From an uncultured Rikenellaceae bacterium (GTDB lineage Bacteria > Bacteroidota > Bacteroidia > Bacteroidales > VadinHA17), in contig CAWDHN010000010.1 of the NCBI GenBank assembly GCA_963802145.1, positions 844,230 through 908,229 of the forward strand: a stretch of DNA of 64,000 nt, in the 5' to 3' direction. Positions 33,530-58,569 of the stretch are shown here, in pieces. A model generated the notes under the pieces. It saw only the letters and a program-made list of their open reading frames with translations. It was not told where the DNA came from and made no database searches. Made by a program: the position numbers and the translations under genes. Positions within the stretch are counted from its first letter, which is position 1. Every line of letters starts with the position of its first letter.

Positions 33530-36493
33530 TTGCAGATTCATTTTATTCTGTCCATGCAGCCCCCCGGCACTAAAAAGAGCGAAGGGCTCTTCGCACTCAT
33601 CCTGACCCAGCACCGACGGTGGGGTACTGTACTGGTTCCATATATGCTTGCGAAAACGCCCGGCCGTGAGTATTATACCATGACGGAGGCGCTGTCGCCT
33701 TTCCCGGACTCGGGAACCCTGTCGGGACTAGACAATGAGGAGAGGGAAGTGGTCAGGCTGGTAAATGAGTACTCAGACCGCAATCTCTTCAAGCTCTTCT
33801 CCAAACACCGCAGTGTCAGGGACTTTATAGACAGTGTCACCGACCGTGAGTTCGAGAAGTACATCAAGCCATACATCGAATCTAGGATCCATCACTGTCT
33901 CCATATATCACTCAATGAGGAGATACCGTTATTCCTCCAGAAGACAAAGATCACCACGCTTCATCCTGAAGACAGGCTGTCTGTAGAAGCGACGGAAGCA
34001 ACACCGGTCTTCAGGTTCGACCGGAGTCCGGGAGGCAGCAGCTATAGCCTCCTCATCGAATCCGCAGGCAGGCCTCTTGATCTCCGGAAGTCGTACATCG
34101 AGATCCTTTCAAACAAGCCGTGCGTAATCAGGGCAGGCCTTATAATACACTTTGTATCAGACATTGAAGGTGCAAAGCTGAAACCCTTCCTCACCCGCGA
34201 GAAGATAAGCATCCCGCGCGACGCTGAGGAGAAGTACTTCGGCACATTCGTTCTGTCAGTCATCAACACCCACAAAGTCACCGGCACGGGATTCACCCTT
34301 GAACAATCTGAACCCGGGAAGAGTGCTTTTCTCACCATTGAAAGAAACCTCTCCGGCGTTCCCTCGGCGATGCTGAAATTCAGGTATGATGAAAGGGATA
34401 TCTTCTACCCCGATGATTTGATGCACTTCACCTCCTTCAGCAATGAGAGGGGTAACTTCATTTTTCGCAGAAAGGAGAGGGATCGGGGCTGGGAGAAGAG
34501 ATGCATGCAGGCACTTGAGGAGGCCGGCCTTTTTACCGAGGATGGCATCAGTTTCATGACCCCCGGTGCCAGGGAAGAGAACGGCAGGGCTATGTATGAC
34601 GTTATTGAGGCCATTGCATATAACAGATCCAGGCTTGAGGATGCAGGTTTCCACATCCGGACAGGCAGCCTTGACAGGCCTTACTCTCTTAATCCTGTGG
34701 AGATCAGGCTCAGTCATCAGCTGATCAACGACTGGTTTGACCTTAAGGCTGTTGTGCAGATTGGCCCCTTCAGCATCCCATTCACCCGGTTCAGACGCAA
34801 CATCATTGAAGGCATGCGTGAGTATACACTGCCTGACGGCACAGTGGCCGTACTGCCGGAAGAGTGGTTTGCACGCTACCGTGGACTCTTCGAGATGGGA
34901 AAGGACAATGATGAGAGCCTTATGCTTCATAAACAGCACTTCGGGATTATCAGTGAAGTGGTCTCTGATGACGATTGCGACATTTGTCAGAAGCTCGGAA
35001 AACTAACGATGCCCGAACAGCTGCCCCTGTTACCTGCGCCGGCAGGATTGAAGGCAGAGCTGCGCCCATATCAGCAGGAAGGATTAAGCTGGCTCTGGTA
35101 CCTGCAGTCAAACAATCTCGGAGGATGTCTCGCTGACGATATGGGCCTCGGCAAGACGCTTCAGACACTGGCCCTCCTGCAATGGAACAAAGAGCAGCGG
35201 TCCGGCAGCAATGTAAGGCAGGCAGGCTCGCAGTTGACAGTTTTCAGAGATGAAAACATCCCGGCAACATCGCTGGTAATCGTTCCCGCTTCGCTCTGCC
35301 ATAACTGGTACAATGAAATCAGGAAATTCTGCCCTGGCATGAGGACCATGATCCATCACGGAGCCGGCAGGCACAGGTCAGCATCACAATTTACCGGCTA
35401 TGACATTATCATTTCAAGCTACCATACAGTAAGGCAGGACATTGAATTCTTCATAACGGTTAATTTCCTCTATGTTGTCCTTGACGAAAGCCAGCACATC
35501 AAAAATCCCTCCTCCAATATCTACAGGGCGGTGATGCGGCTCAGGGCCGATCACAGGATCGTTCTCACCGGAACACCCGTTGAGAACTCCCTCACTGATC
35601 TGTGGACACAGCTCAGCTTCGTTAATCCCGGACTTCTGGGCTCGCTCACATTCTTCCGGCGCGAGTTTGCAAGGCCCATAGAAAAGAACTTTGAAGAGGA
35701 GAAGGAGAACAGGCTGCGGAAGATCATACAGCCCTTCATCATGAGGCGCACAAAGGAGATGGTTGTCACGGAGCTGCCACCTGTGACCGAACAGGTGATC
35801 CACTGCGACATGTCAGAGGGACAGGCTGCCATCTATGAGAGGGAGAAATCGGCTGTGCGCAACAGCATCATGGAGAATATAGAAGCGATCGGCATTGAAA
35901 AATCGGCCATCATGGTGCTTCAGGGACTGATGAGGCTCAGGCAGCTGGCCAATCACCCCATACTGACAGACGAGAATTACACGGGAGGATCAGGTAAGTT
36001 TGATACGGTGACATACAATATTGAGAGTGTGGTGTCTGAAGGGCACAAGATCCTGATCTTCTCATCGTTCGTGAAGCACCTCGATCTTTTCCCCGGCTGG
36101 CTGGAAAGGAACGGTATCGGGTACGCCATGCTTACAGGCTCTACCCGTGAGAGAGAGAGCGTTATCGACCGCTTCAGGAACAACGACAGCATCAAGGTCT
36201 TCCTCATCTCACTCAAGGCGGGAGGTGTGGGGCTCAACCTGACAGAGGCTGATTATGTCTTCATACTCGACCCTTGGTGGAACCCGGCCTCGGAGATACA
36301 GGCCCTGAGCAGGGCTCACCGTATTGGCCAGGAAAAGAGAGTATTTGTCTACCGATACATCTCGGGGGATACGATAGAGGAGAAGATACAGCGCCTGCAG
36401 GAAAGGAAATCGAAACTGGCAGGTTCATTCATCGATTCAAACAATCCCTTCGGCGACCTTGACGTGAAGGAGATGCTTGAAATACTCGACTGA
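33530..36493 (+). CDS. SNF2-family DEAD/DEAH-box helicase with ~500 aa uncharacterised N-terminal region
   Basis: Helicase motifs are DDMGLGKT (I), DESQHIKN (II) and the C-terminal helicase domain QALSRAHRIGQ. The start is uncertain (TTG 33530 or ATG 33554). Confidence 0.85.
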   Translation: MQIHFILSMQPPGTKKSEGLFALILTQHRRWGTVLVPYMLAKTPGREYYTMTEALSPFPDSGTLSGLDNEEREVVRLVNEYSDRNLFKLFSKHRSVRDFIDSVTDREFEKYIKPYIESRIHHCLHISLNEEIPLFLQKTKITTLHPEDRLSVEATEATPVFRFDRSPGGSSYSLLIESAGRPLDLRKSYIEILSNKPCVIRAGLIIHFVSDIEGAKLKPFLTREKISIPRDAEEKYFGTFVLSVINTHKVTGTGFTLEQSEPGKSAFLTIERNLSGVPSAMLKFRYDERDIFYPDDLMHFTSFSNERGNFIFRRKERDRGWEKRCMQALEEAGLFTEDGISFMTPGAREENGRAMYDVIEAIAYNRSRLEDAGFHIRTGSLDRPYSLNPVEIRLSHQLINDWFDLKAVVQIGPFSIPFTRFRRNIIEGMREYTLPDGTVAVLPEEWFARYRGLFEMGKDNDESLMLHKQHFGIISEVVSDDDCDICQKLGKLTMPEQLPLLPAPAGLKAELRPYQQEGLSWLWYLQSNNLGGCLADDMGLGKTLQTLALLQWNKEQRSGSNVRQAGSQLTVFRDENIPATSLVIVPASLCHNWYNEIRKFCPGMRTMIHHGAGRHRSASQFTGYDIIISSYHTVRQDIEFFITVNFLYVVLDESQHIKNPSSNIYRAVMRLRADHRIVLTGTPVENSLTDLWTQLSFVNPGLLGSLTFFRREFARPIEKNFEEEKENRLRKIIQPFIMRRTKEMVVTELPPVTEQVIHCDMSEGQAAIYEREKSAVRNSIMENIEAIGIEKSAIMVLQGLMRLRQLANHPILTDENYTGGSGKFDTVTYNIESVVSEGHKILIFSSFVKHLDLFPGWLERNGIGYAMLTGSTRERESVIDRFRNNDSIKVFLISLKAGGVGLNLTEADYVFILDPWWNPASEIQALSRAHRIGQEKRVFVYRYISGDTIEEKIQRLQERKSKLAGSFIDSNNPFGDLDVKEMLEILD

Positions 36494-40776: not shown

Positions 40777-42558
40777 CTAATATGATTCGCGCTGCGTGTA
40801 ATGCGTATGCAGGAGTTCGTGCGCCTTATGCCCGTTGGGTTTCTCAAGAAACTCTTCGTAAATGGCCTTGATCTCCGGGTTCTCATGCGACTTCCTCAGG
40901 TCCATATGCATATCTTCGGAATAGATTGCCTCCATACGCTTATTCCTGATGGCAGCGTTGGTGGGTATAGGCTGGCCCCCGCCTCCGAGACATCCTCCCG
41001 GGCAGGCCATTATCTCAATGAAGTGGTATGTTGCCTTGCCGGTGCTGACAGCCTTCGCAATCTTGTTTGCGTTGACCAGGCCGTGGGCTATTGCCACCTT
41101 GAGTTCGGCTCCCTCGAGGAATCTCCACTCCTCCGTTGTACCTTCTATCTTAATAGTAGCCTCCTTCACTCCCTCCATTCCACGGACAGGCATGATATTG
41201 AGGTTCTTGAAGGGAACCGGTCTGCCGGTCACTATCTCGTACGCGGTACGGAGGGCTGCCTCCATCACGCCACCGGTGGCTCCGAAGATCACTGCGGCCC
41301 CTGTTGAGGTGCCCATGAGTGAGTCATAATGATCCTCTTCGAGAGTAAGGAAATCAATCCCCGCCTGCTTGATCATAACAGCGAGCTCGCGTGTGGTGAG
41401 AACAAAGTCGATGTCCTTGTAGCCACTTGATCTCATCTCTGGCCTGTCAGCCTCATACTTCTTTGCTGTACAGGGCATGATTGAGACAGAGACGATCTTT
41501 GAAGGGTCAATCTTGCGTTTCTCTGCGTAGAAGGTCTTGGCCAGGGCGCCGAACATCTGCTGCGGTGATTTGCAGGTTGAGAGGTTCGGAAGCATATGCG
41601 GATATTTGTGTTCAATGAACTTGATCCATCCCGGCGAGCATGAGGTGAACATAGGCAGGGCGAGGCTCTTGTCGCCTTCAACCAGTACTTTTTTCAGTCT
41701 CGTCAGCAGTTCCGTGCCTTCCTCAATAATGGTAAGGTCGGCCGTGAAGTCAGTGTCAAGCACCGAGTCGAAACCAAGCTGACGCAGGGCTGTAACCATT
41801 TTGCCGGTCACCCTTTCACCCGGGTCAAACCCCAGGTCTTCGCCGAGGGCCACCCTTACTGCAGGAGCGGTCTGAACCACAACATGCTTGTCCGGATCAT
41901 AGATGGCATCCCATACCTGGTCTATGTAGGTCTTCTCCGTCAGGGCACCCGTCGGACAGCGGTTGACGCACTGGCCGCAGTTGGTGCAGACCACATGACT
42001 CATCGGGCGGTCATGGAATGATGAAATCTTCATGTGTGAGCCCTTGTTCGCCACTGCAATTGCAGAGACGTGTTGAAGCTGGGAGCAGGTGCGCACGCAG
42101 CGCTGACACCTGATGCACTTGCTGTCGTCCTTGATGAATGACGGTGACGATCTGTCTATTGAATATGCATGATCTTCAACAAGGTCAAGGAAGATATGCT
42201 CCCCGAACGAATACTCGTTTGCCAGCGTCTGAAGCTCGCATTTCTGGTTCTTGTAGCACTTGGTGCAATCGGCCCTGTGCTCTGACAGCAGCAGTTCAAC
42301 GATATGCTTGCGCGCGTTCCTTACCCTGAGCGAGTTGGTGTGTATCTCCATTCCTTCCGATACCGGCATGGCGCATGCGGCGATGAGCGTGCGTGCACCC
42401 TTCTGTTCAACAACACATACGCGGCAGTTTCCCGCAACACACAGGTCCTGGTGATTGCACAGCGTAGGTATGATTATGCTCAGTGTCTTAGCAGCATCCA
42501 GAACGGTGGTTCCTTCAGCTACCTTTACCTCATGTTCATTTATCTTTAGAGTTACCAT
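40777..42558 (-). CDS. hydA: [FeFe] hydrogenase catalytic subunit (group A, M3-type with 2Fe-2S + His-ligated 4Fe-4S + 2x4Fe-4S N-terminal domains)
   Basis: 593 aa. H-cluster motifs are FTSCSPGW (variant of TSCCPGW), MPCTAKKYE and EIMACPGGCLGGGGQP. The N-terminal cluster motifs are CIRCQRCVRTC and CTNCGQCVNRCP. Confidence 0.9.
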   Translation of the reverse strand: MVTLKINEHEVKVAEGTTVLDAAKTLSIIIPTLCNHQDLCVAGNCRVCVVEQKGARTLIAACAMPVSEGMEIHTNSLRVRNARKHIVELLLSEHRADCTKCYKNQKCELQTLANEYSFGEHIFLDLVEDHAYSIDRSSPSFIKDDSKCIRCQRCVRTCSQLQHVSAIAVANKGSHMKISSFHDRPMSHVVCTNCGQCVNRCPTGALTEKTYIDQVWDAIYDPDKHVVVQTAPAVRVALGEDLGFDPGERVTGKMVTALRQLGFDSVLDTDFTADLTIIEEGTELLTRLKKVLVEGDKSLALPMFTSCSPGWIKFIEHKYPHMLPNLSTCKSPQQMFGALAKTFYAEKRKIDPSKIVSVSIMPCTAKKYEADRPEMRSSGYKDIDFVLTTRELAVMIKQAGIDFLTLEEDHYDSLMGTSTGAAVIFGATGGVMEAALRTAYEIVTGRPVPFKNLNIMPVRGMEGVKEATIKIEGTTEEWRFLEGAELKVAIAHGLVNANKIAKAVSTGKATYHFIEIMACPGGCLGGGGQPIPTNAAIRNKRMEAIYSEDMHMDLRKSHENPEIKAIYEEFLEKPNGHKAHELLHTHYTQRESY

Positions 42559-42575
42559 AATAGTCTATACTGGTT

Positions 42576-43736
42576 TTAATATATAATCTCTTCCCTGAAA
42601 TTCTCGACAATTGATTTGAAGGCGTTTCCCACCGACTGGCCGAGTCCGCACTTGGAGGCCACCTTCATGGTGTCAGCAAGCTTGACCAGCTCAGTCAGGT
42701 ATGTCGACTTTGCTTCGCCTTTCTTGACCTTCTCCACACCCTTGAGAAGCTGCTGGCATCCGACACGGCAAGGCGTGCACTGTCCGCATGATTCCTCGGT
42801 GAAGAACTCAAGATAGTTATGGAGTACGTTGTACATCGAGCGTGAGCTGTTGAACAGCTTCATTGAACCGCCGGTAGGCACTCCCTCAAACCCGATAATG
42901 GTTTCAGCAAATTTCTTGCGTGGAACGCAGAATCCTGATGCTCCTCCAACCTGTACTGCCTTGGCATCGCCGTCGCCGAACTCATTGACGAACTCCTGGA
43001 CGGTCATTCCCAGCTCAAGTTCAAAGATACCAGGTATGGGAGTATCTCCCGAGATGGAGAACACCTTTGATCCCCGTGAATCCTTGGTCCCAAGCTTCAC
43101 ATACATCTCCGGACCCCTGGCAATGATCATCATTGCGGTCACAAGGGTTTCGACGTTATTGATGGATGTCGGTTTTGAGAAGAGGCCACTGGTCGTCGGA
43201 TAGGGCGGTTTATTGCGGGGTTCACCACGGAAGCCCTCTATGGATTCAAAGAGTGCACTCTCCTCACCGCAGATGTAGGCTCCGCTTCCCATACGGTATT
43301 CGATGTTGAAGTCATAACCGATCTCGGCTATCATTTTATGGAACTTATGAAGCTCGAGATAAAGATGGGGAAGAAGAAACCTGTACTCGCCACGGAGATA
43401 GATAAAACCCTTCCTTGCACCCATTGCCTTGCCGGCTATGGCCATTCCGCCATAAACCTTGTATGCAGCGCGATCAAGTATCTCACGGTCCTTGAAAGTG
43501 CCGGGCTCGCCCTCATCGGCGTTACATACTATATATTTCTCCGGATCCTTCTCCGCTGCAGTGTATTTCCACTTGAGACCGGTCGGAAAACCGGCGCCCC
43601 CGCGGCCTTTAAGACCTGATTCCAGAACCTGCTGAATGATCTCATCACTGGTCATTGAGAAGGCCTTTACCAGAACCTCCCTGGAATCTATTGTTTCAAA
43701 TATAAGATCTACTTTATTTAGTCCTCTGTTTTCCAT
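42576..43736 (-). CDS. hydB: NuoF-like flavoprotein subunit of the [FeFe] hydrogenase (FMN + one 4Fe-4S), short form
   Basis: 386 aa. It has the FMN/NADH region GRGGAGFPTGLKWK and the N3-type cluster CGQCTPCR...CGLG. There are no additional Cys-cluster domains. Confidence 0.85.
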   Translation of the reverse strand: MENRGLNKVDLIFETIDSREVLVKAFSMTSDEIIQQVLESGLKGRGGAGFPTGLKWKYTAAEKDPEKYIVCNADEGEPGTFKDREILDRAAYKVYGGMAIAGKAMGARKGFIYLRGEYRFLLPHLYLELHKFHKMIAEIGYDFNIEYRMGSGAYICGEESALFESIEGFRGEPRNKPPYPTTSGLFSKPTSINNVETLVTAMMIIARGPEMYVKLGTKDSRGSKVFSISGDTPIPGIFELELGMTVQEFVNEFGDGDAKAVQVGGASGFCVPRKKFAETIIGFEGVPTGGSMKLFNSSRSMYNVLHNYLEFFTEESCGQCTPCRVGCQQLLKGVEKVKKGEAKSTYLTELVKLADTMKVASKCGLGQSVGNAFKSIVENFREEIIY

Positions 43737-43753: not shown

Positions 43754-44218
43754 TTATTTACGCATGTAACCTTTAATAACATCAATAACCGTTTCAGTCG
43801 TCAGGTCAGTGTACGGCATGTCATTGATCAGAATGGCAGGAGCCTTATGACACCATCCTATGCAGTTCGTCTCAAGAAGGGTGAACATTTTGTCGGGAGT
43901 GGTCTCACCCACCTTTATCTTAAGTATCTCCTCTATCGTGTTAATAATGTCATTCTTTCCTTTCATTGAGCAGGTGATGGTCTTGCAAACCCTGATCACA
44001 TTCTTCCCCCTGAGCTCAGTGTCGAGGAAAGTATAAAAGGAGGCTGTCCCGTATACTTCTGCTGCCGAGATATCAAGCTCGGTAGCAACTTCCACCATTG
44101 CCTCGTCGGTCAGGTAGTTATGCTTTCTTACAATGTCCTGAAGGATCGGCATTAGGCTCTCTCTCTTGCGGCCGTACTTCTCTGCCAGCTCCTTCACCAT
44201 GTTACCAGTGTGATACAT
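43754..44218 (-). CDS. hydC: NuoE-like 2Fe-2S thioredoxin-fold subunit of the [FeFe] hydrogenase
   Basis: About 154 aa from MYHTGNMVKEL. The cluster Cys pattern is CKTITC...CIGWC. The track start at 44296 would add an implausible leader. Confidence 0.85.
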   Translation of the reverse strand: MYHTGNMVKELAEKYGRKRESLMPILQDIVRKHNYLTDEAMVEVATELDISAAEVYGTASFYTFLDTELRGKNVIRVCKTITCSMKGKNDIINTIEEILKIKVGETTPDKMFTLLETNCIGWCHKAPAILINDMPYTDLTTETVIDVIKGYMRK

Positions 44219-44279
44219 TTCTGTTTCGGTTTTAAGTGATTTGAATATTTTAATCTGGAAATTGGTGCTTCCTTTCGGC

Positions 44280-44295
44280 TGTGAAAATAATAACA
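44280..44295. promoter_or_regulatory. weak Rex-operator-like site upstream of hydC
   Basis: TGTGAAAATAATAACA has a perfect left half-site (TGTGAA) but a degenerate right half (ATAACA versus TTCACA). It lies 62 nt upstream of the proposed hydC start. Confidence 0.3.
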
Positions 44296-44386
44296 ATACT
44301 CAATCGAAAACCTTACTTATGTCATGTTTATGAATATTTCAGGTTTGAACCGGAATGACGATCGATGTGCTTAAATCTCCTGTTAA

Positions 44387-45046
44387 TCAGCTGACGGAGA
44401 ATGCCTCAAGCTGTTTTGTGAGCCAGTCAAGCCAGCTCTGCAAGCCCTCTCCCCTCACTGCAGAAACCTTAAGGATGGTGATCCCCGGATTGATTGCCGC
44501 CATGTCACCAAGAAAGGCATCAATGCTGAAATTCGTATATGGCAGCAGGTCTGTTTTGTTCAGTATGACAGCCCGTGCCTCACTGAACAGCATGGGATAT
44601 TTGGCCGGCTTGTCATCTCCCTCTGTAGTGCTGACTACCGCCAGCTTGAAGGTCTCACCCAGGTCAAACTGCGAAGGACAGATAAGGTTGCCCACATTCT
44701 CCACAAAGAGGAGGTCGAGGGAATCCAGATCAAAATGTTCAAGGGCTTTGGAGATGCTGTGAGAATCAAGATGACATCCTCCCTCCGTATTGATTGCTAC
44801 GATAGGTATATCATACTTCTTCAACCGCTGCGCGTCGCGGTCAGTGGTGACGTCACCCTCTATCACGCCTATCCTTACCTTCGGGACCAGTGCCTCGCAT
44901 GTCCGTTCCAGCAATGTCGTCTTTCCGGCGCCCGGGGAGCTGATAATGTTTACCATCATCACCTTCTTGTGATTAAGCATCTTACGCACCTCTTCAGCCT
45001 TGTTCTGGTTCCTGTCGAGGATGTTCTTCATAATCCTTATTTCCAT
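44387..45046 (-). CDS. hypB: hydrogenase nickel incorporation GTPase HypB
   Basis: 219 aa. It has the P-loop SSPGAGKTTLL, the CH motif region (GGCHLD) and ENVGNLICP. Confidence 0.92.
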   Translation of the reverse strand: MEIRIMKNILDRNQNKAEEVRKMLNHKKVMMVNIISSPGAGKTTLLERTCEALVPKVRIGVIEGDVTTDRDAQRLKKYDIPIVAINTEGGCHLDSHSISKALEHFDLDSLDLLFVENVGNLICPSQFDLGETFKLAVVSTTEGDDKPAKYPMLFSEARAVILNKTDLLPYTNFSIDAFLGDMAAINPGITILKVSAVRGEGLQSWLDWLTKQLEAFSVS

Positions 45047-45048
45047 GA

Positions 45049-45390
45049 TTATTCTCCTTCAATACTTTTTATGAATAACTCTTTTCCGTGTTTTACAATT
45101 ATCTCATCAGAACCGCATATGCCACAACCATGGATATCATCGGCAGGGGTGTATTCGGCGCCGCATCCGAGACATCGCAGCTCCGGCGGAATGATCTCAA
45201 TATCGAGTTCCGCAAAGGCTGCAGCACTGTCTCTTGCCGCTTCCCGGAAGGCAGCTTCAAAAAACTCAGGGACAACCTGCACGAACTGCCCGAAGCTGAT
45301 ATTCACCCTCTCAACGGTTGTCAGTCCTGCTTCCGCTGCATATCCGGCCACCATTGCAGCCAGTTCTTCCGCTATTCTCAGCTCGTGCAT
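45049..45390 (-). CDS. hypA: hydrogenase nickel insertion protein HypA
   Basis: 113 aa. It has the MHEL N-terminus and a zinc site formed by CLGCG...CGICG. Confidence 0.92.
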   Translation of the reverse strand: MHELRIAEELAAMVAGYAAEAGLTTVERVNISFGQFVQVVPEFFEAAFREAARDSAAAFAELDIEIIPPELRCLGCGAEYTPADDIHGCGICGSDEIIVKHGKELFIKSIEGE

Positions 45391-45400
45391 CGCAGTCTCG

Positions 45401-46408
45401 TCAGCATATTCTGGGCAGCAGCTGCCCTGAAGGCATATCCAGGAATCTCCTGCCTCCTGTTGAACTGTTAAGTATTACCCTACCCTCTCTTCCGTTCGCA
45501 ATTTCACCAATAATTGCAGTATCCCTTCCCTGAGGATCTCTGCGCATCCGGTCGACTATCCCTTCCGCCTCTTCCGGGGAAGCGACTATCAGCACCCTCC
45601 CCTCACTGGCAAGAGTGAGAGGATCAAAACCGAGTATCTCACACAAGCCTCTTACGGGCTCCCGCACAGGCACGGACGCTTCATCAACGCTCATGCTGCA
45701 GCCGGTGATGGCTGCGAGCTCGTTGAGCACCGCGGCCAGGCCACCCCTTGTAAGGTCTCTCATGAAATGTACTGCACCTGGCCTCTCTGTCACCTTTCTT
45801 ATCAGTTGGTTCAGTGAGGCACAGTCAGATGCCATGGGTGTATCGAACGAGAGGTTCCTGCGCGAGGCGAGTATAGTCACGGCATGGTCTCCCGGAGGTC
45901 CGTTGATGATCAGCCTGTCGCCTGCCTTTACAGTGGAAGCGGAGCTGATATGAAGAAGGTCATTACTGATCACTCCCACCCCTGCAGTATTGATGAATAA
46001 CCTGTCGCACTGGCCTTTCTCCACCACCTTGGTGTCGCCTGTGACTATCCGCACGCCGGCCACCACCGCCTCATCAGCCATTGAGGCCACTATCGCGTCG
46101 AGCTCATCAAACCCGAATCCCTCCTCAATAATGAATGCGGCTGACAAATATTTCGGTTCAGCTCCTGATACGGCAAGGTCATTTACTGTACCGCACACCG
46201 CCAGCTTGCCAATGTTTCCTCCAGGGAAAAAGAGCGGATCAATGACGTAGGAGTCAGTTGTAAAAGCCACCATCCCCTGATGGAGTGAGAGCAGGGCCGA
46301 ATCGGTCATGGGTCCATTCATTCCGAACCGCGCGGCAAAATGGTCACGTATGAGTGCCTGGGCCTGCCTGCCGCCGCTGCCGTGACTCAGTGTAATCTTC
46401 TCACTCAT
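45401..46408 (-). CDS. hypE: hydrogenase expression/formation protein HypE
   Basis: The protein starts at MSEKITLSHGSGG. It has a PurM-like fold length and the C-terminal PRIC motif. Confidence 0.92.
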   Translation of the reverse strand: MSEKITLSHGSGGRQAQALIRDHFAARFGMNGPMTDSALLSLHQGMVAFTTDSYVIDPLFFPGGNIGKLAVCGTVNDLAVSGAEPKYLSAAFIIEEGFGFDELDAIVASMADEAVVAGVRIVTGDTKVVEKGQCDRLFINTAGVGVISNDLLHISSASTVKAGDRLIINGPPGDHAVTILASRRNLSFDTPMASDCASLNQLIRKVTERPGAVHFMRDLTRGGLAAVLNELAAITGCSMSVDEASVPVREPVRGLCEILGFDPLTLASEGRVLIVASPEEAEGIVDRMRRDPQGRDTAIIGEIANGREGRVILNSSTGGRRFLDMPSGQLLPRIC

Positions 46409-47501
46409 GATGGTGGTACTTAAAATATGTATTGCACGATCCCTCATCGGATACCATGCATGCACCCTCAGGATGGTCGGGGGTGCATGCCTCTGCGAAG
46501 AGGGTGCAGTCAGGGGGTGTGCTCACACCCCTCAGAATGTCTCCGCAGATACATGCATTTGCATGGGAGGCCTCAGGTAGGTCCACAGCAAAGGCAGCGG
46601 CGGCATCAAACCGCATGTAACGTTCACGGATCTGCAAGCCACCCGATGCAATGACGCCGAGACCACGCCAATCAACATCGCAAGGCTCAAAAACTTCATT
46701 CATGAACCCCTTTGCCCTGGCGTTGCCTTCAACTGACACTGCCCTGCTGTATTGTATCTCTACGCCTGGCGAACGGCTGTTAACCTGCCTGACGAGCATC
46801 AGCACCGACGAAAGGATGTCTGTGGGCTCAAACCCTGTCACCACGCATGCCAGCCCGTACCTGGCCGGGATGAAATCAAAGGCTGACGAGCCGGTAATGA
46901 CGGCCACATGCCCAGGACAGATAAACCCGTCTATTTTAGTCCCCTCCCTTAATATCACCTCCATGGCCGGCGGCATCACCTTGTGGGCGTTCAGCACATA
47001 AAAATTGTCGACTCCTTCGCTCTCAGCCTTCATCAGCGTCACTGCCGTACCGGGTGCGGTGGTCTCAAATCCTATTGCCGAAAAGACTGTCTTCCGGTGA
47101 GGATTTGACCGGGCCAGTTCCAGGGCCTCATGTGCCGACAGCACTACCCTGATATCCGCGCCGGCGGCCTTCGCAGCACCGGGTGAGAGAAGGGTGCCGG
47201 GCACCCTCATCAGGTCACCGAAGAGAGCCACCGTCATGTTCTCACGTTGAGCGAGCGCAACCAGGGTATCGATGTACCGGGCCGAGGTGACGCAGACAGG
47301 ACAGCCCGGGCCGGAAATGAGCCTGATCTCCGGAGGCAGCAGCGAGGGTATTCCAAACCTGTGAATGGCTGCCGTGTGACCTCCGCAGACCTCCATGAAG
47401 GTATAGTCACCTGACGATGACTGCCTGATCATATCGGCCAGCCTGGTTATATGCCTCTTCTGCCTGTATTCGTCAACGTATTTCATGACCGGGTCATTCA
47501 C
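46401..47501 (-). CDS. hypD: hydrogenase formation protein HypD
   Basis: 366 aa with the motifs CGGHT, GPGCPVCV and GFETTAP. Confidence 0.92.
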   Translation of the reverse strand: MNDPVMKYVDEYRQKRHITRLADMIRQSSSGDYTFMEVCGGHTAAIHRFGIPSLLPPEIRLISGPGCPVCVTSARYIDTLVALAQRENMTVALFGDLMRVPGTLLSPGAAKAAGADIRVVLSAHEALELARSNPHRKTVFSAIGFETTAPGTAVTLMKAESEGVDNFYVLNAHKVMPPAMEVILREGTKIDGFICPGHVAVITGSSAFDFIPARYGLACVVTGFEPTDILSSVLMLVRQVNSRSPGVEIQYSRAVSVEGNARAKGFMNEVFEPCDVDWRGLGVIASGGLQIRERYMRFDAAAAFAVDLPEASHANACICGDILRGVSTPPDCTLFAEACTPDHPEGACMVSDEGSCNTYFKYHHHE

Positions 47502-47718
47502 TCATTGAATCATCCATCTCCTGCAGCAGGCGTAACGTCTCAAGGGCATCTTCCTCCTTCAGCTTCTCGATGGCGAAACCGGCATGAAGCAATACGTAAT
47601 CGCCCACCGAGACGTCATCAACCATCTGAAGCCCTGCCCTGAAGAGGGCTCCTCCCACGGAGACCTCCGCCATCTCACCGTCGATGGCGATAACCTTCGC
47701 GGGAAGACTCAGACACAT
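47494..47718 (-). CDS. hypC: hydrogenase assembly chaperone HypC
   Basis: 74 aa with the N-terminus MCLSLPAKV. It overlaps hypD and hypF. Confidence 0.9.
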   Translation of the reverse strand: MCLSLPAKVIAIDGEMAEVSVGGALFRAGLQMVDDVSVGDYVLLHAGFAIEKLKEEDALETLRLLQEMDDSMSE

Positions 47719-49953
47719 ACTCCCCTCCTTTCTGCCGCCGTAAGGAGCTGACCGAGTGAGATGCCTCCGTCATTTGCAGGAACCTGGTGGTTGGTGTAGA
47801 CCATGAATTTGTTCATGGATAAAAGATACAAAGATTTCTCAAGCAGATACCTGTTCTGGAAAACCCCTCCCGAGAGGACAACATCTTTCAGTCCTGTCTC
47901 CCTTCGTATCCTGATGCATACGGCGACTATTATCTGTGCAATGGTATTATGAAACTTGGCTGCGATAAGGGGAATATCCGGTTTCTTTATATCCCTCAGA
48001 ATCTCCTGGAACATTTCACTGAGAGAGACCGTTGAGTTGAGGGTAAAGGGATAATAATCTTCCGTCGTGCAGCATATTGCTGACTCAAGCCGCATCGGTG
48101 CTTCAGAATCGAAGGATGACCTGGTGCATGGCATAAGAAGGGCCGAGACAGCATCGAAGACTCGTCCGGCGCCACATGTCAGTGGCGAATTTATGCCCTG
48201 AGCAAGCATAGCGGTGACGGTGTCAAGCTTTCTCTCTTCAATTGTCCGGAAAAGCTTAACCGACCGGAAGTCATAACCGTCGCCCACATAACTGTAAAGG
48301 CACGAGAGGGCCATCCGCCAGGGTTCATCAACAGCAGCATCGCCTCCGGGCATCATGAAATAGTCGAAGTGAGTGTATCTCTCGAAATCCCGTGCGGTTA
48401 CTGTCATGAACTCGCTGCCCCAGGTATTGCCGTCAGTGCCATAGCCGGTCCCGTCCATTATCACGGCAATAACCCTGCCGGCAAGACGATGCTCGGCCAT
48501 CACCGATGCCGCATGGGCATGGTGATGCTGGACCCTCGTCAGAGAGAGCCCCGTTCCTTCTGCCAGCTCTTCCGCAAACCTCGTTGACAGGTAATCGGGA
48601 TGCATATCGCAGACAATTGATGATGGGGTAAACCTGAAAAGAGAGGAGAAGAGCCTGACGGTCTCCTGATAATAATCGTATGTGGCCACATTTTTTAATA
48701 TCACCTATATACTGGCTCATAAAAGCCTGGTTGTTTTTGCCAATGCAGAAGCTGTTCTTCTGTTCGGCACCGGCGGCGAAAATACCCTCAGCTGAAGATT
48801 CCAGATCAACAGGCTGGGGTGCATAACCCCTTGACCTCCTTATAAGGCTGATGTTGCCGCCAATAATTCTTACAACCGAGTCGTCAGCCCGGTTGCAGAT
48901 CTCCCTGTTGTAACTAACGACGCAGCCGGTGACGGGCATGAGGTCTCTTTCGGCATGGTGGTCGCAGGTGATTATCGGTTCGTCGCTGAGATTACCGCTT
49001 GTCAACACGATTGCAGGTGTGCCGGAGAGCCTGAAGAACATATGGTGAACCGGCATATGGGGCAGCATCGCCCCGACCGTGTTCAGGCCGCTGCTCACTG
49101 ACGGAGCCAGCTCTCTCCTCTGCCTGAGTATTAATATCGGTCTTCTCCATGACAGCAGGGCAGCCTCCTCCTCCCTATCCGTAAAACAGTACTCCCTGAC
49201 GGCGTCAATATCCCTGAACATAACTGCAAAAGGCTTCATGTCACGCTGTTTTCTCTGTCTGAGCAGGGTGACAGCCTCCTCATTCAGGGCATCGCACATG
49301 AGGTTATATCCGCCTGTCGATTTTATGGCGACACTTCCACCGGCATCAAGGCGGCCGGAGATGAAACGCAGAATGTCAGTTATGCCTGTCACAACTTTGT
49401 CGCCTGCCTTCAGAGTGTATACCGGCCCGCAGCTGTTGCATGCCACGGGCTGTGCATGGAACCGCCGGTCAGAGATATCATTGTACTCTGCAGCACACCG
49501 GTGACACATGGCGAACGAGTCCATGGTGGTGTTGGCCCTGTCATAGGGAAGGGCCTTAATTATGGTGAAGCGGGGACCGCAGTTTGTGCAATTAATGAAG
49601 GGATAATCAATGCGTGCGGGGTCCGCAGCAAGATCAGCAAGGCACTCCCCGCAAAGGGCGATGTCAGGACTAACCTCCGTAATGGTCTCCTCGATATTCC
49701 TGCTGGGGGTGATGGTGAAGTCGCTGTATCTCCTTATTTCTGTTATTCGCGCCTCTATAGATTTAATGTTTGCTGCCGCAGGAGCCAGGGCACGGATATC
49801 ACCCATAAACTTTTCTGCCGTAGCCAGGTCACATTGCAGTACCACTGTAACCCCGTCAGTCCTGTTGACCACTTCGCCGGTCAGACAGTACATGCAGGCA
49901 AGCCTGTGAATGAAAGGACGGAATCCCACACCCTGCACAAGCCCCCGGATCAA
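47709..49953 (-). pseudogene. hypF: carbamoyltransferase HypF, interrupted by a +1 frameshift in an A6 run as assembled
   Basis: The N-terminal frame (track 48433..49953) carries the acylphosphatase (GLVQGVGFRPF), zinc-finger (CGEC, CTNCGPRF, CHRC, CNSCGP) and YrdC-like domains. The C-terminal frame (47709..48704) carries the Kae1-like domain. Removing one A (plus-strand T6 at 48691-48696) joins them as ...SQYIGDIKNVATYDYYQETV... No ATG is available at the N-terminus; there is a TTG at 49953. Confidence 0.85.
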
Positions 49954-49979: not shown

Positions 49980-50633
49980 CTATAGGAATAATGACTGCTT
50001 CTCCTTCATACGGTAGACAGACCAGATTACACTCTCTATCTCATCACTCAGGTTCACGTTGTTAACAACCACATAGACAGGTACCTTAAGCAATACAGGC
50101 GAGAAATTCACAATACCCCTGATACCCATGCTTACAAGTTCATTGCACACCTCCTGGGCCGAAATGCCAGGGACGGCAACGATGGCCACCGTGACCCTGA
50201 ACCTGTCAATTATCTCCTGAAGGCGCTCCGGGGCATAGACAAGAGATGCAGCCCTGATCTTCTGCTTATTGGGGTCTATGTCGAAAGTGGCAACAATGTT
50301 TATTCCACGCTGAATAAATTGTCCGTACTTGGAGAGAGCCTGTCCGAGATTGCCCATACCCACAAGGATCACGTTGGTGATCCTGTCCCTGTTGAATATT
50401 GCCTCCATCTCCAGGAGAAGTGATTCGGTCAGGTAACCTCCCCTCCTGTTACCCTTTATGCCATATTCGGAAAAATCTTTCCTTACCTGCTCGGGAGAGA
50501 CCCCTGCACCTGCGGCAATAGTGTGGGAAAAGACCCGGGTGACACCCATGGTGTTCATTCGTGCCAGCAGCCCATGATAGAGAAAAATTCGCCTCAGGCT
50601 GTTCCTAACAGTATGTTTCGTGAATTCCTTCAC
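49980..50633 (-). CDS. rex: redox-sensing transcriptional repressor Rex
   Basis: 217 aa with a GTG start. It has a winged-helix N-terminus (RVFSHTIAAGAGVSPEQVRKDFSEYG) and the Rossmann motif VGMGNLGQAL. Confidence 0.9.
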   Translation of the reverse strand: MKEFTKHTVRNSLRRIFLYHGLLARMNTMGVTRVFSHTIAAGAGVSPEQVRKDFSEYGIKGNRRGGYLTESLLLEMEAIFNRDRITNVILVGMGNLGQALSKYGQFIQRGINIVATFDIDPNKQKIRAASLVYAPERLQEIIDRFRVTVAIVAVPGISAQEVCNELVSMGIRGIVNFSPVLLKVPVYVVVNNVNLSDEIESVIWSVYRMKEKQSLFL

Positions 50634-50825: not shown

Positions 50826-51815
50826 ATGTACTACATAAGCATTAAGAAAGAAGATTGGCATCGTTCACTGGAAAAACTACTCACCTCCCATGACATTTTT
50901 GTTCCGGTGAAGGATGAATATAGCCTTGATTATGAGCCTTTCAGGCCGAATCAGGCTGAACATATTGCTTATAACACCCCCAAGCCTGCCACTCCGCTCA
51001 AGAATTTCTTTCTGCCCGTAAGGGAGAATGTGACTTCGGCCAGGAATACCGGCAGGCCAAGGATCATCATCGGTGTGCCCAACTGTGATGTTGAGGCTCT
51101 GGGGCTGCTTGACGAGATTTATATGGATGAGGAGTTCAACGATCCCTTTTACAGGAACCGCCGGGAAAGCACCATCCTTATATCTTCAGACTGCTACTCG
51201 GTGAATGATCACTGCCATTGTACCTCCTATGGTGTTAAGCCTTATTCGATGGCGAATGCAGACATGGCACTGCTATCGGATGGCGATGTTATTCATCTGA
51301 GGGTCATAACCGGACGCGGTGAAGAGTTTTCAAAGCAGTTAACCTCCGTCTTCGCCGGAGATGGCTCTGACCACCTCCGTTATGCAGAGAAGCGGCATCA
51401 GGAGGCTGAAGCCATGCTGGCTGACCGCAACAAAGGCCTTCCGGACTACAAGACCACGGGAGAGATCGTACAGAAGGCAGGTGCACGGATATGGGCAAAG
51501 TACGCATCGAAGTGCGTTTCGTGCGGTGCATGTACAACCATCTGCCCCACCTGCAGCTGCTTTCTCCTGATTGACAAGCCCGATTTTGCAAAAGTCAAGC
51601 AGATGGACGCCTGTCAGTACCCCGGGTTTGCCAGGGTTGCCGGAGGAGAGGATGCCCTTTTCCACCTTCCCGATCGTTTCAGGAACAGGTACATGTGCAA
51701 GTATGTATGGAAGCCTCAGAAATTCCATTCACTGGCATGCACTGGCTGCGGGAGGTGCATTGAGGCATGCATCGGCAAGATCAGCAAGAATGAACTGTTC
51801 ATGGAACTCATCTGA
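50826..51815 (+). CDS. 4Fe-4S protein of the AsrA / sulfhydrogenase beta (HyhB/HydB) type
   Basis: 329 aa with the Cys motifs CVSCGACTTICPTCSC and CTGCGRCIEAC. It is paired with an AsrB-type gene 8 nt downstream. Confidence 0.7.
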   Translation: MYYISIKKEDWHRSLEKLLTSHDIFVPVKDEYSLDYEPFRPNQAEHIAYNTPKPATPLKNFFLPVRENVTSARNTGRPRIIIGVPNCDVEALGLLDEIYMDEEFNDPFYRNRRESTILISSDCYSVNDHCHCTSYGVKPYSMANADMALLSDGDVIHLRVITGRGEEFSKQLTSVFAGDGSDHLRYAEKRHQEAEAMLADRNKGLPDYKTTGEIVQKAGARIWAKYASKCVSCGACTTICPTCSCFLLIDKPDFAKVKQMDACQYPGFARVAGGEDALFHLPDRFRNRYMCKYVWKPQKFHSLACTGCGRCIEACIGKISKNELFMELI

Positions 51816-51823
51816 CGATTCTT

Positions 51824-52651
51824 ATGGCCAGCTATGACAATAATATATATAAGCCTCTCAGGGCGACACTCGAAGAGGTGATTGATGAATCGCCCGTGAT
51901 CAAGACCTTCGTGCTGATCCCCGATGAAGAATTCGTCTTTAAAACCGGACAGTTCATTGAGCTCTCAGTTGAAGGCGTGGGCGAGGCACCCTTTACCCCT
52001 TCGTCGTCACCCCTGGTAACCGACAGGCTGGAGGTCACGGTCATGAAGACAGGTTATGTCACCGGCATCATGCATGAGCTTAAACCGGGTGCGGTGATGG
52101 GTATCAGGGGTCCTTACGGACGGGGTTACCCGGTCAGTGAGTTTGAAGGCAAAGAGGTGCTGATCCTTGGCGGAGGATGCGGCCTGGCTCCCATACGTTC
52201 ACTGCTCTACGCACTTGAACACATCAAGGATGACCTTGAGAAGGTGGTACTCTGCTATGGCTCGAAGACACCTGCCGATTGCATCTACAAGCCTCTGTTC
52301 ACCAGGCTGAACAGCATAGATAAATTTGAGGCCCACCGTACAGTGGACGTTACCGATGATGACTGGGACGGGCCTGTTGGCGTGGCCACCAAGCTGCTCG
52401 ACAGCGTAAAGGTGAATATAGACCGGTCGGTTGCCGTGGTATGCGGCCCGCCGATCATGATGAAGTTCGGTACGCTGAGGCTTCTGGAGATGGGCTACCG
52501 CGATGAACAGATATACCTCTCCATGGAAAAGAACATGTCGTGCGGCCTCGGCAAGTGCGGCCATTGCATGATGGGCGAATTTTTCGTCTGCAAAGACGGT
52601 CCGGTATTCACTTACAAGGAGTTAAAACATAATCCTGAAATCTGGAAATAA
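51824..52651 (+). CDS. FAD/NAD(P)-binding 2Fe-2S oxidoreductase of the AsrB / sulfhydrogenase gamma (HyhG/HydG) / PyrK type
   Basis: 275 aa. It has a flavin-binding barrel (APFTPSS), the nucleotide motif GGGCGLAP and a C-terminal 2Fe-2S motif (CGLGKCGHCMMGEFFVC). Confidence 0.8.
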   Translation: MASYDNNIYKPLRATLEEVIDESPVIKTFVLIPDEEFVFKTGQFIELSVEGVGEAPFTPSSSPLVTDRLEVTVMKTGYVTGIMHELKPGAVMGIRGPYGRGYPVSEFEGKEVLILGGGCGLAPIRSLLYALEHIKDDLEKVVLCYGSKTPADCIYKPLFTRLNSIDKFEAHRTVDVTDDDWDGPVGVATKLLDSVKVNIDRSVAVVCGPPIMMKFGTLRLLEMGYRDEQIYLSMEKNMSCGLGKCGHCMMGEFFVCKDGPVFTYKELKHNPEIWK

Positions 52652-52667
52652 CCTAAAGGGGAATGTC

Positions 52668-53123
52668 ATGAAGGTGGAAATTGATGATCTGAAACAAATC
52701 AGATTTTTTGAGAAGTTCTCTGATGAGCAGCTCGGAACCATTGCCCTGATCTCTTCCATCAGGGAGTTCAGGGTAAAGGAAATGATATTCGAACAGTATG
52801 ATGAGCTTTCAGAAGTATTCGTCCTGCTGTCCGGGTCCCTCTCGCTGGGTATCAGCCTGCCGAAGGAAAAGAGGATACACCTGGGAACCATTGAAGAGGG
52901 TCAGCTCTTTTCGTGGTCAGCTGTTTTCCCTCCCTTTATCTCCACAGCCTGGGTGATGGCCGTCACTCCGGCAAGGGTTATCGCCATCGATGCGAAAAAG
53001 CTCAACGCCGAAATAGAGCGCGACTGTGATTTCGGCTTCAAGACCATGTCAAAGATTGCCCAGACCATATCTCACCGCCTTAGCGATACCAGGTTCCAGC
53101 TTATGAACCAGCTGAGCCTATAG
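52668..53123 (+). CDS. stand-alone cyclic-nucleotide-binding (CAP effector) domain protein, no DNA-binding domain
   Basis: 151 aa. It has a beta-barrel cNMP-domain pattern (FFEKFSDEQL...GQLFSWSAV...RVIAIDAKKL) followed by one C-helix, then a stop. Confidence 0.65.
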   Translation: MKVEIDDLKQIRFFEKFSDEQLGTIALISSIREFRVKEMIFEQYDELSEVFVLLSGSLSLGISLPKEKRIHLGTIEEGQLFSWSAVFPPFISTAWVMAVTPARVIAIDAKKLNAEIERDCDFGFKTMSKIAQTISHRLSDTRFQLMNQLSL

Positions 53124-53135
53124 ACAGCATAAATC

Positions 53136-53627: not shown

Positions 53628-53638
53628 AGAGAAAGGAT

Positions 53639-54568: not shown

Positions 54569-54579
54569 AATTACAGATC

Positions 54580-54993: not shown

Positions 54994-55003
54994 TGACAAA
55001 CCT

Positions 55004-55441: not shown

Positions 55442-55454
55442 TACTCTGACCACC

Positions 55455-58554: not shown

Positions 58555-58569
58555 CACAACAATAAGACA

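Follow-up and report, generated by a model that had tools for sequence, protein, structure and literature searches.

Serine at an H-cluster ligand position in a HydABC-type [FeFe]-hydrogenase locus, predicted to be non-bifurcating, of an uncultured sediment Bacteroidales bacterium

In the textbook [FeFe]-hydrogenase, an iron-binding cysteine is found where the HydA considered here instead reads serine, i.e., Ser308. What sort of protein, then, is this HydA: the product of a mistaken sequence, a degenerate relative of hydrogenases, or instead a working enzyme with a different residue at one of its cluster-binding positions? The gene lies within a 64-kb stretch of DNA, which is described here as the ‘window’. 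The answer favored, held with good though not full confidence, is that the locus encodes a functional, heterotrimeric HydABC of an uncultured, Rikenellaceae-like sediment Bacteroidales, with Ser308 representing a recurrent and already documented alternative at a ligand site, and with a predicted coupling of NADH to H2 that does not involve bifurcation.

The features relevant to the serine are as follows, where CpI is the Clostridium pasteurianum enzyme, and Tk and Aw are the HydA1 proteins of Thermoanaerobacter kivui and Acetobacterium woodii, respectively.

hydA, 40777..42558, minus strand: 593-aa catalytic subunit of [FeFe]-hydrogenase, from Pfam, NCBIfam and PDB matches
Motif L1, PMFTSCSPGW, 41626..41655, minus strand: HydA residues 302-311, from translation
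Ser308 codon, TCG, 41635..41637, minus strand: position of CpI Cys300, Tk Cys299 and Aw Ser301, from ungapped alignment
Cys307 codon, TGC, 41638..41640, minus strand: position of the proton-relay cysteine, CpI Cys299
Motif L2, MPCTAKKYE, 41452..41478, minus strand: Cys363, a cubane ligand, is equivalent to CpI Cys355, and Lys366 to Lys358
Motif L3, EIMACPGGCLGGGGQP, 40969..41016, minus strand: Cys519, a cubane ligand, and Cys523, bridging, are equivalent to CpI Cys499 and Cys503

Position and authenticity of Ser308

An earlier, sequence-only reading of this DNA had placed a serine at the position of the cubane-ligating cysteine, and that placement is borne out. In phmmer alignments to 8A6T (T. 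kivui), 7Q4V (A. woodii) and CpI, Ser308 falls upon Tk Cys299 and CpI Cys300. These alignments are gap-free from L1 through approximately 50 residues beyond, with the closest upstream gap found nine residues ahead of L1. The positional homology that the reading proposed to check by alignment thus holds against all three proteins, and the indel that it considered, i.e., one shifting the motif while conserving both cysteines, is not seen around L1. Its coordinates for the serine codon (TCG at plus-strand 41635-41637) are exact, and motifs 2 and 3, which it had described as canonical, both are found precisely as given. Its span for motif L1, that is, 41625-41656, is too wide by one base on each side, though the translation offered, PMFTSCSPGW, is the right one.

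The cubane ligands of HydA are thereby cysteine at three positions out of four (Cys363, Cys519 and Cys523), with the first instead being Ser308. HydA consequently does not display the four cysteines expected of a [4Fe-4S]H site (CpI C300, C355, C499 and C503). It nonetheless is filed here as a member of group A, as that expectation is not absolute: The active A. woodii HydA1 possesses Ser301 at the same place.

Could the serine be an artifact? The suggestion would be that the true gene reads TSCCP and that this is concealed by a sequencing or assembly error, or instead by a hidden motif-shifting indel. In its favor, the assembly is not free of such faults, hypF having at least one homopolymer indel error. 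Over the Ser308 codon, however, Logan contigs from four independent runs, belonging to four different studies, are without any difference, this being confirmation by assembled contigs of metagenome runs rather than by raw-read pile-ups. TSCSP furthermore is present in 120 of the 120 nearest proteins (84-92% identity) and at 80 of 80 related loci in other assemblies (77-98% identity), and no gaps are found around the motif in the alignments. Error as an explanation is next to impossible.

The earlier reading also had judged a sequencing error to be unlikely, as going from TGC to TCG requires two base changes, and had proposed a survey of homologs for TSCSP. The judgment stands, and the survey gives the counts just cited, but the two differences are better explained otherwise. 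Among the 80 loci, that is, the serine is encoded by TCA in 33, TCT in 20, TCC in 14 and TCG in 13, meaning that all four TCN codons are in use. This would fit a single, old TGY-to-TCY change, after which the codon drifted synonymously while selection kept the serine. Cys307 has been retained in all 80 of these loci.

Family membership and precedents for the serine

HydA displays what is known as an M3 architecture, consisting of an N-terminal [2Fe-2S] domain, a His-ligated [4Fe-4S] cluster, two ferredoxin-type [4Fe-4S] clusters, the H-domain, and a small-subunit-like C-terminus. Its Pfam matches are to Fe_hyd_lg_C (PF02906; 5.5e-96), Fe_hyd_SSU, Fer2_4 and NADH-G_4Fe-4S_3. The PDB sequence that matches best overall is that of T. 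kivui HydA1 (8A6T_A, E=4.7e-186), with A. woodii HydA1 (7Q4V_A) at E=1.4e-177, and sequence matches at E of about 1e-186 settle the fold. HydA scores 522 bits against TIGR02512, ‘group A’ (cut-off 406), and 884.2 bits against NCBIfam NF040763, ‘NADH-dependent [FeFe] hydrogenase, group A6’ (cut-off 765), the latter match spanning HydA residues 2-590 and all 571 model positions (1-571). Homologs at 84-89% identity carry the NF040763 name at NCBI. That A6 label by itself, however, does not separate bifurcating from non-bifurcating enzymes.

In terms of motifs, L2 (MPCxxKxxE) and L3 (ExMxCxxGCxxG) of group A are found exactly, and L1 (TSCCPxW) is found with one substitution, as TSCSPGW. The proton-transfer pathway also is intact, i.e., as Cys307, Glu280, Ser327, Glu283 and Arg287 (CpI C299, E279, S319, E282 and R286). 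Within the 64-kb window there are no hydE, hydF or hydG maturase genes.

How unusual is such a serine? It had been supposed that natural variation affects the first cysteine of the motif while sparing the second, and this supposition is wrong. According to Kertess et al. 2017 (PMC5855289), about 20% of putative hydrogenase sequences have a serine here, and, combining their figure with the survey of H-domains described below, a TSCSPGW-type L1 is present in about 13-20% of family members. The TSCSPGW of Melainabacteria hydrogenases was noted in 2013. In the HydABC of A. woodii, as described by Katsyv et al. 2023 (PMC10021017), Ser301 replaces one cysteine ligand of the A1 cluster, the vibrational (FTIR) signature is not apparently affected by it, and the enzyme is active (4.1 U/mg in bifurcation). 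The associated map is only 3.4 Å, so the Fe-O(Ser) bond is modeled rather than proven. In the literature searched, nothing on serine-ligated H-clusters was found past Katsyv 2023 and Kertess 2017, nor did ‘TSCSP’ with ‘hydrogenase’ return anything relevant apart from the 2013 Melainabacteria mention. That same literature appears to contain no redox titration or EPR study of an H-cluster in which serine occurs naturally, and no high-resolution structure of one. The observation of Ser308 is correct, but it is of a variant which is widespread, already documented and hence ordinary, rather than new.

It is worth placing HydA alongside those relatives for which there is more to compare. A. woodii HydA1 (PDB 7Q4V/7Q4W/8A5E) has the M3-type architecture in common with HydA, the match running from residue 2 to 590. 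They do not differ in their L1 segment, TSCSPGWIKFIE, with Ser301 at the ligand position, and A. woodii HydA1 has canonical L2 and L3 motifs along with a cysteine, as here, within LS(S/T)CKSPQ. With T. kivui HydA1 and with CpI (e.g., 4XDC; match about 1e-134), all of the F- and H-domain motifs align. HydA differs from these two, whose L1 is a canonical TSCCP in which the ligand is Cys299 (Tk) or Cys300 (CpI), and which have an alanine at the HydA Cys329 position.

A different view of HydA is that it is a degenerate homolog, whether non-catalytic or sensory. Some first-Cys variants are, after all, a mark of sensory groups. The Melainabacteria TSCSPGW proteins, in addition, lack a motif-3 cysteine. 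HydA, however, retains motifs 2 and 3, the three other cysteine ligands, Lys366 and the proton pathway, and passes the cut-off of a curated family of catalytic subunits. No PAS or other sensory domain is found in it by Pfam, and hydA is part of a conserved hydCBA operon. Degeneracy thus is very improbable.

How the cubane may be held

To place the serine in a broader context, H-domains were surveyed from 134 sequences, i.e., 133 representatives at 50% identity plus HydA. The Cys-Ser combination is seen in 17 of 134 (16 representatives and HydA), including in Natronincola, a Clostridia MAG and an Actinomycetota MAG, and Cys-Cys is seen in 102 of 134. Both groups are defined by possession of a Cys307 equivalent, making its constancy within them a matter of construction. 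In the H-domain alignment, the other three cubane ligands are invariant across the Cys-Ser group. Equivalents of CpI E279, E282, R286 and S319 are conserved equally in Cys-Ser and Cys-Cys enzymes.

The proposal here is that the H-cluster cubane would be bound by Cys363, Cys519 and the bridging Cys523, with Ser308 occupying the fourth ligand position. The serine O-gamma most likely would serve as fourth ligand, or at least as site filler, while Cys307 most likely would retain its function as final relay of protons to the adt bridge. From the F-clusters of HydA, electrons would go on to HydC/HydB, the NuoE/NuoF-like module. Conservation of the three ligands, along with that of the proton-pathway residues, is what favors serine as ligand and Cys307 as relay.

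The sequence-only reading had offered two mechanisms, ligation by serine or instead takeover by the neighboring cysteine with relay loss. The first is what the A. woodii HydA1 structure models. The second would have Cys307 moving one residue to ligate the cubane, Ser308 becoming a bystander, and the cysteine proton relay being lost or replaced. A map of 3.4 Å is too coarse for a rigorous choice between these registers. Equal conservation of the E279, E282, R286 and S319 equivalents in TSCSP and TSCCP enzymes nevertheless would be unexpected were the terminal relay lost, the authors of the A. woodii structure themselves modeled Ser301 as ligand, and that enzyme both is catalytically active and gives the FTIR signature typical of an H-cluster. 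In addition, the codon has drifted synonymously while serine itself has been strictly kept in 200 relatives, an indication that this residue does something specific. A shift to Cys307 accordingly is improbable.

A further candidate for the missing ligand is Cys329, found within ‘LSTCKSPQ’ at the position of CpI Ala321. In a comparison of just four sequences the idea looks attractive, as TSCSP is accompanied there by cysteine (HydA, A. woodii) and TSCCP by alanine (CpI, T. kivui). Among representatives scanned for motifs, however, alanine is present in 6 of 20 TSCSP proteins, and cysteine is the commonest residue in TSCCP proteins as well (51 of 97). In the H-domain alignment the cysteine is present in 12 of 17 TSCSP versus 61 of 102 TSCCP enzymes, with no significant association. 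TSCSP with alanine and TSCCP with cysteine both being common, this missing covariation effectively refutes a ligand swap, which is scarcely tenable.

Compensation for the serine was sought elsewhere in the H-domain. Per-column Fisher tests (17 Cys-Ser versus 102 Cys-Cys) gave no covarying residue that explains tolerance of the serine. The best columns, Gly310, Ile315 and His317, all near the motif, reach p of about 2e-4, uncorrected and in a test that is confounded by relatedness.

Nor does the serine state mark a single lineage. A rough neighbor-joining tree scatters it, with at least about 16 Cys/Ser changes, such that monophyly is rejected; at 35-50% identity such a tree is unreliable, and it is taken as saying only ‘not a single clade’. 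The NF040763 (A6) cut-off is reached by 7 of 16 Ser representatives versus 4 of 79 Cys representatives, the latter being those Cys-Cys members of no more than 800 aa that were covered by the NCBIfam scan, and with shared ancestry uncorrected. Serine might also be more than a neutral substitute and act as a recurrently selected ‘tuning knob’, one by which multimeric hydrogenases coupled to NAD(H) would have their [4Fe-4S]H potential, or their catalytic bias, shifted and which is enabled by a scaffold context that CrHydA1 lacks. Retention of serine across 200 relatives, the repeated switching and the A6 enrichment, all three of them uncorrected for shared ancestry, are compatible with such tuning. 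The sole spectroscopy on a natural Ser enzyme, however, showed no effect (Katsyv 2023, PMC10021017), and tuning is rather unlikely.

Scaffold does appear to matter, as seen with the engineered C. reinhardtii HydA1 C115S (expressed-protein numbering; Kertess et al. 2017, PMC5855289). This is the same Cys-to-Ser change at the second cysteine of TSCC, and it results in strongly reduced [4Fe-4S] occupancy, no detectable [2Fe] insertion and no activity. Serine thus is not tolerated in every scaffold. Selection has, by contrast, conserved the natural TSCSP enzymes, of which at least that of A. woodii is active.

HydB and the predicted coupling of NADH to H2

The features of the partner subunits, and of a nearby regulator gene, are these.

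hydB, 42576..43736, minus strand: 386-aa NuoF-like flavoprotein with FMN/NADH site and one [4Fe-4S], from Pfam and alignments
hydC, 43754..44296, minus strand: NuoE-like subunit with thioredoxin-fold [2Fe-2S], from Pfam 2Fe-2S_thioredx (5.1e-46, residues 35-177) and NuoE family matches
rex, 49980..50633, minus strand: transcriptional repressor sensing redox state (NADH/NAD+), from NCBIfam NF003996 (190 bits versus cut-off 138)

The listed hydC open reading frame starts with TTG, and its true start probably is an internal ATG at about 44218. The rex gene is on the same strand and upstream of the hyp and hydCBA genes, and Rex is a plausible, putative regulator.

HydB has Complex1_51K and NADH_4Fe-4S as its only Pfam domains. 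That is, it is without the N-terminal [2Fe-2S] and C-terminal 2x[4Fe-4S] domains of bifurcating HydB proteins, and is alignable only to residues 169-553 of T. maritima (Tm) HydB (626 aa) and 148-523 of A. woodii HydB (599 aa). Losey 2020 (PMC7311640) treats absence of the extra [Fe-S] domains as one sign of a non-bifurcating enzyme, and provides others, though all of these derive from few characterized enzymes: T or S at Tm HydB 232 and K, S or A at 234 (with bifurcating enzymes having A/E and M), Tyr rather than Phe at the FMN/NADH site (the equivalent of Nqo1 Tyr180), and no GGPSG in the SLBB region (Tm 427-431). HydB reads PGTFKDR versus PGAFMNR in Tm, GSGAYICGEE versus GAGAFVCGEE in Tm and Aw, and GGASG in place of GGPSG. 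The FMN-site Tyr/Phe is numbered ‘367’ by Losey 2020, which does not match PDB numbering (Phe312); the only other Phe nearby, however, also is Tyr in HydB (PPYP versus PPFP). Of 76 related loci, 71 display the full pattern, GGASG included, and every one of the 76 has the T/K and the Tyr.

These attributes contrast with those of the electron-bifurcating HydABC(D) of A. woodii, a member of Bacillota rather than, as here, Bacteroidota. Its HydB, at 599 versus 386 aa, possesses the additional N-terminal [2Fe-2S] and C-terminal 2x[4Fe-4S], along with the bifurcating PGAFMDR, GAGAFVCGEE and GGPSG. The NADH-dependent and non-bifurcating Syntrophomonas wolfei Hyd1ABC and Syntrophus aciditrophicus HydAB (Losey et al. 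2017, 2020; PMC7311640) instead share with this locus the three-subunit layout of HydA plus NuoF-like and NuoE-like subunits, and a HydB with no additional Fe-S domains, T/S and K/S/A at Tm 232/234, the FMN-site Tyr, and no GGPSG, a likeness drawn from the published criteria rather than from their sequences. As HydB thus consists of a complex-I-like core only, and carries all of the published non-bifurcating signatures, direct coupling is predicted. HydABC, that is, most likely is an NADH-dependent, non-bifurcating hydrogenase, one that would couple NADH/NAD+ to H2 without ferredoxin, like S. wolfei Hyd1ABC.

In terms of annotation, a degree of caution is called for: TSCSPGW is neither a defect nor a curiosity but instead a form that L1 may legitimately take in catalytic [FeFe]-hydrogenases, one that spans Bacteroidota, Bacillota, Actinomycetota and Melainabacteria. 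It does pose a small puzzle, in that enzymes with a natural serine are active, whereas the identical Cys-to-Ser exchange leaves the algal enzyme inactive. The more useful result from this locus, however, is one of function. That is, the predicted product of the operon, which lies next to a Rex regulator, is a hydrogenase dependent on NADH and independent of ferredoxin, and this predicted function bears on how these sediment Bacteroidales may dispose of reducing equivalents.

The H-cluster motif of HydA

The hydA gene and its H-cluster motifs are found as follows.

40777-42558, minus strand: hydA ORF, 593 aa
41626-41655, minus strand: H-cluster motif 1, PMFTSCSPGW, by translation
41635-41637, in plus-strand positions: Ser308 codon, TCG, with Cys307 the preceding residue
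41452-41478, minus strand: motif 2, MPCTAKKYE, present and canonical
40969-41016, minus strand: motif 3, EIMACPGGCLGGGGQP, present and canonical

Minus-strand translation confirms exactly what a sequence-only reading had described, i.e., TCG encoding Ser at 41635-41637 along with canonical motifs 2 and 3. When compared with solved structures by phmmer, HydA matches T. kivui HydA1 (8A6T; E=4.7e-186), A. woodii HydA1 (7Q4V; E=1.4e-177), and CpI, the C. pasteurianum hydrogenase (E~1e-134). These alignments are gap-free from motif 1 through the next ~50 residues, with the closest upstream gap ending 9 residues before the motif. Ser308 aligns with T. kivui Cys299 and with CpI Cys300, that is, it does occupy the cubane-ligand position, as had been claimed, and Cys307 aligns with the proton-relay Cys. 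No indel in the phmmer alignments restores TSCCP.

The Pfam domains of HydA are Fe_hyd_lg_C (5.5e-96), Fe_hyd_SSU, Fer2_4, NADH-G_4Fe-4S_3, and ferredoxin-type 4Fe-4S domains. HydA scores above the curated cut-off of TIGR02512 ([FeFe] hydrogenase, group A) and, at 884 bits, above that of NF040763 ('NADH-dependent [FeFe] hydrogenase, group A6'; cut-off 765). As judged from its sequence, HydA is the catalytic subunit of an M3-type [FeFe]-hydrogenase, and by the criteria tested the locus belongs to, and would work like, the group A multimeric [FeFe]-hydrogenases. One textbook defining feature of group A, four Cys ligands, is absent from this HydA; per published work, that feature is not absolute.

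The Ser codon is identical in Logan contigs (assembled contigs, that is, not raw reads) of four independent metagenome runs from four different studies, as sampled from sediment, freshwater sediment, freshwater, and rhizosphere, with the caveat to such contig evidence that the assembly has a homopolymer indel error elsewhere in the window (hypF). TSCSPGW is seen in 120/120 nearest protein clusters (84-92% identity; those named being 'Bacteroidales bacterium'), and TSCSP in 80/80 related genome loci (77-98% identity; nearly all Bacteroidales/Rikenellaceae MAGs). Given this agreement across runs, clusters, and loci, simple sequencing error indeed is unlikely. The two-base difference between TGC and TCG, upon which that argument had been based, is real. 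With all four TCN codons in use among the 80 loci (TCA 33, TCT 20, TCC 14, TCG 13), however, it is explained by a single ancient TGY-to-TCY change and later synonymous drift, over which selection would seem to have held Ser at position 308.

The hydCBA operon and its surroundings

Two further genes lie directly upstream of hydA on the same strand, forming with it a hydCBA operon.

42576-43736, minus strand: hydB, NuoF-like, 386 aa, with Complex1_51K and NADH_4Fe-4S
43754-44296, minus strand: hydC, NuoE-like, with 2Fe-2S_thioredx

HydB matches no more than residues 169-553 of the 626-aa T. maritima HydB and residues 148-523 of the 599-aa A. woodii HydB; it thus lacks the N-terminal [2Fe-2S] and C-terminal 2x[4Fe-4S] domains of bifurcating enzymes. 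Losey et al. 2020 (PMC7311640) provide sequence criteria for bifurcating versus non-bifurcating NADH-dependent enzymes, and by every one of these HydB is in the non-bifurcating state: PGTFKDR carries Thr and Lys (PGAFM in bifurcating enzymes), GSGAYICGEE carries Tyr (Phe in bifurcating enzymes), and GGASG stands in place of GGPSG. The short HydB with these signatures is seen in 71/76 related Bacteroidales loci, and Thr/Lys plus Tyr in 76/76. From the short HydB and its signatures the complex is predicted to be of the same type as S. wolfei Hyd1ABC, a NADH:H+ oxidoreductase independent of ferredoxin, a prediction which the NCBIfam label 'A6, NADH-dependent' does not settle.

The Phe/Tyr site is given by Losey et al. 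2020 as '367' of T. maritima HydB, which does not match PDB numbering. In 7P5H_B the paper's 232, 234, and 427-431 fit exactly, the FMN-site Phe of GAGAFVCGEE is 312, and no Phe is found near residue 367, so '367' likely is a numbering slip. As the window HydB has Tyr at both candidate positions, the Phe/Tyr result is unaffected.

Further features of the window are these.

44387-47501, minus strand: hypB, hypA, hypE, and hypD, [NiFe]-hydrogenase maturation genes, directly upstream of hydCBA on the same strand
47709-49953, minus strand: hypF, apparently frameshifted, as two overlapping ORFs that cover 3-426 and 423-740 of the HypF model
49980-50633, minus strand: rex, redox-sensing transcriptional repressor (190 bits versus a cut-off of 138)
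50826-59112, plus strand: divergent [NiFe]/Mrp-like cluster
33530-36493, plus strand: SNF2-family helicase, 987 aa

The hypBAEDF genes are upstream of hydC, and of these hypB, hypA, hypE, and hypD presumably serve the [NiFe] cluster across rex rather than HydA; no hydE, hydF, or hydG is found within the 64-kb window. The break in hypF lies in an A/T homopolymer at about 48695-48700 (extra base at about 48697-48699), which is one base shorter in short-read Logan contigs of all three of the metagenome runs X1, X5, and X6. The frameshift thus most likely is a homopolymer-length assembly error rather than a sign of a pseudogene. Rex, encoded between the two hydrogenase clusters, is a plausible candidate regulator. 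The plus-strand cluster encodes sulfhydrogenase beta/gamma-like proteins (ShyB/ShyC-like, under family cut-offs), a HydN-like 4Fe-4S protein, and NuoH-like, NuoD-like/[NiFe] large-subunit-like, NuoL/MrpA-like, and MrpB-like proteins. It resembles a group 4 membrane-bound [NiFe]-hydrogenase or an Mrp-type complex, which together with hydCBA would give this organism two distinct hydrogenase systems in neighbouring clusters. The helicase resembles pilus-regulating Snf2, ZorD, and DrmD helicases at scores below threshold and could be a defence-system component.

Spread of the variant and the probable roles of Ser308 and Cys307

The sequence-only reading held that natural variants leave the second Cys unchanged, which is incorrect. 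A. woodii HydA1, the second-best PDB match, has the segment TSCSPGWIKFIE, identical to that of the window HydA, and the A. woodii HydABC complex is active (4.1 U/mg in bifurcation; Katsyv et al., PMC10021017). TSCSPGW was described also from Melainabacteria confurcating hydrogenases in a 2013 paper. Kertess et al. 2017 (PMC5855289) made mutants for every cubane ligand in C. reinhardtii HydA1 (CrHydA1), in which C115 is the Ser308 equivalent and the adjacent C114 is the relay Cys. There C115S strongly reduces [4Fe-4S] occupancy, renders [2Fe] insertion undetectable, and leaves activity at <1 umol H2 per min per mg (PMC5855289). Tolerance of Ser thus is context-dependent.

In a survey of 1.84 billion cluster representatives, the best 150 were examined, with 133 full-domain H-domains from these plus the query providing a 134-row alignment. 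Positions 307/308 are Cys-Cys in 102 rows and Cys-Ser in 17 (16 representatives plus the query), with the other rows displaying residue pairs that characterise divergent or sensory groups. In a rough neighbour-joining tree, unreliable at this depth, the Ser state is scattered (at least ~16 changes) and would not appear to be a single clade. Named Ser-bearing representatives are Natronincola peptidivorans, one Clostridia MAG, and one Actinomycetota MAG; counting as well A. woodii, the present Bacteroidales, and Melainabacteria, the TSCSP variant is found in at least four phyla. Enrichment for Ser is seen at the A6 cut-off (NF040763), which is reached by 7/16 Ser versus 4/79 Cys representatives, counts which ignore phylogeny, and each state is found both inside and outside of the A6 family. 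One 4122-aa representative, P0121, has seven tandem H-domain matches, all TSCCP, and probably reflects gene mis-calling or concatenation, unless it is a very unusual multi-H-domain protein.

Either Ser308 ligates the cubane, it had been supposed, or Cys307 takes over with loss of the proton relay. Among Cys-Ser enzymes the three other ligands (C355, C499, and C503 equivalents) are invariant, and the proton-pathway equivalents of E279, E282, R286, and S319 (Glu280, Glu283, Arg287, and Ser327 in the query) are conserved at the level of canonical enzymes. This argues that Cys307 would still be the relay and that Ser308 would sit at the ligand position, in line with the A. woodii structure, where at a map resolution of 3.4 A the Fe-O ligation is modelled, not measured (PMC10021017). 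A Cys in LS(T/S)CKSPQ is shared by the query (Cys329) and A. woodii, with Ala there in CpI and T. kivui. A ligand swap to Cys329 is refuted by a wider sample, in which Ala occurs there in 6/20 TSCSP sequences and Cys is commonest among TSCCP too. Comparing Cys-Ser with Cys-Cys H-domains, no compensating covarying residue is seen (best alignment column p ~2e-4 before correction); the columns that rank highest, Gly310, Ile315, and His317, adjoin the motif, and relatedness confounds them.

Natural scaffolds bear a change that disables CrHydA1, and this change may tune the cluster potential. Both the TSCSP variant and how often it occurs are already in the literature, as is a structure for an active enzyme that has it. 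What is new is only one more uncharacterised member, from a sediment Bacteroidales bacterium and probably of non-bifurcating subtype.
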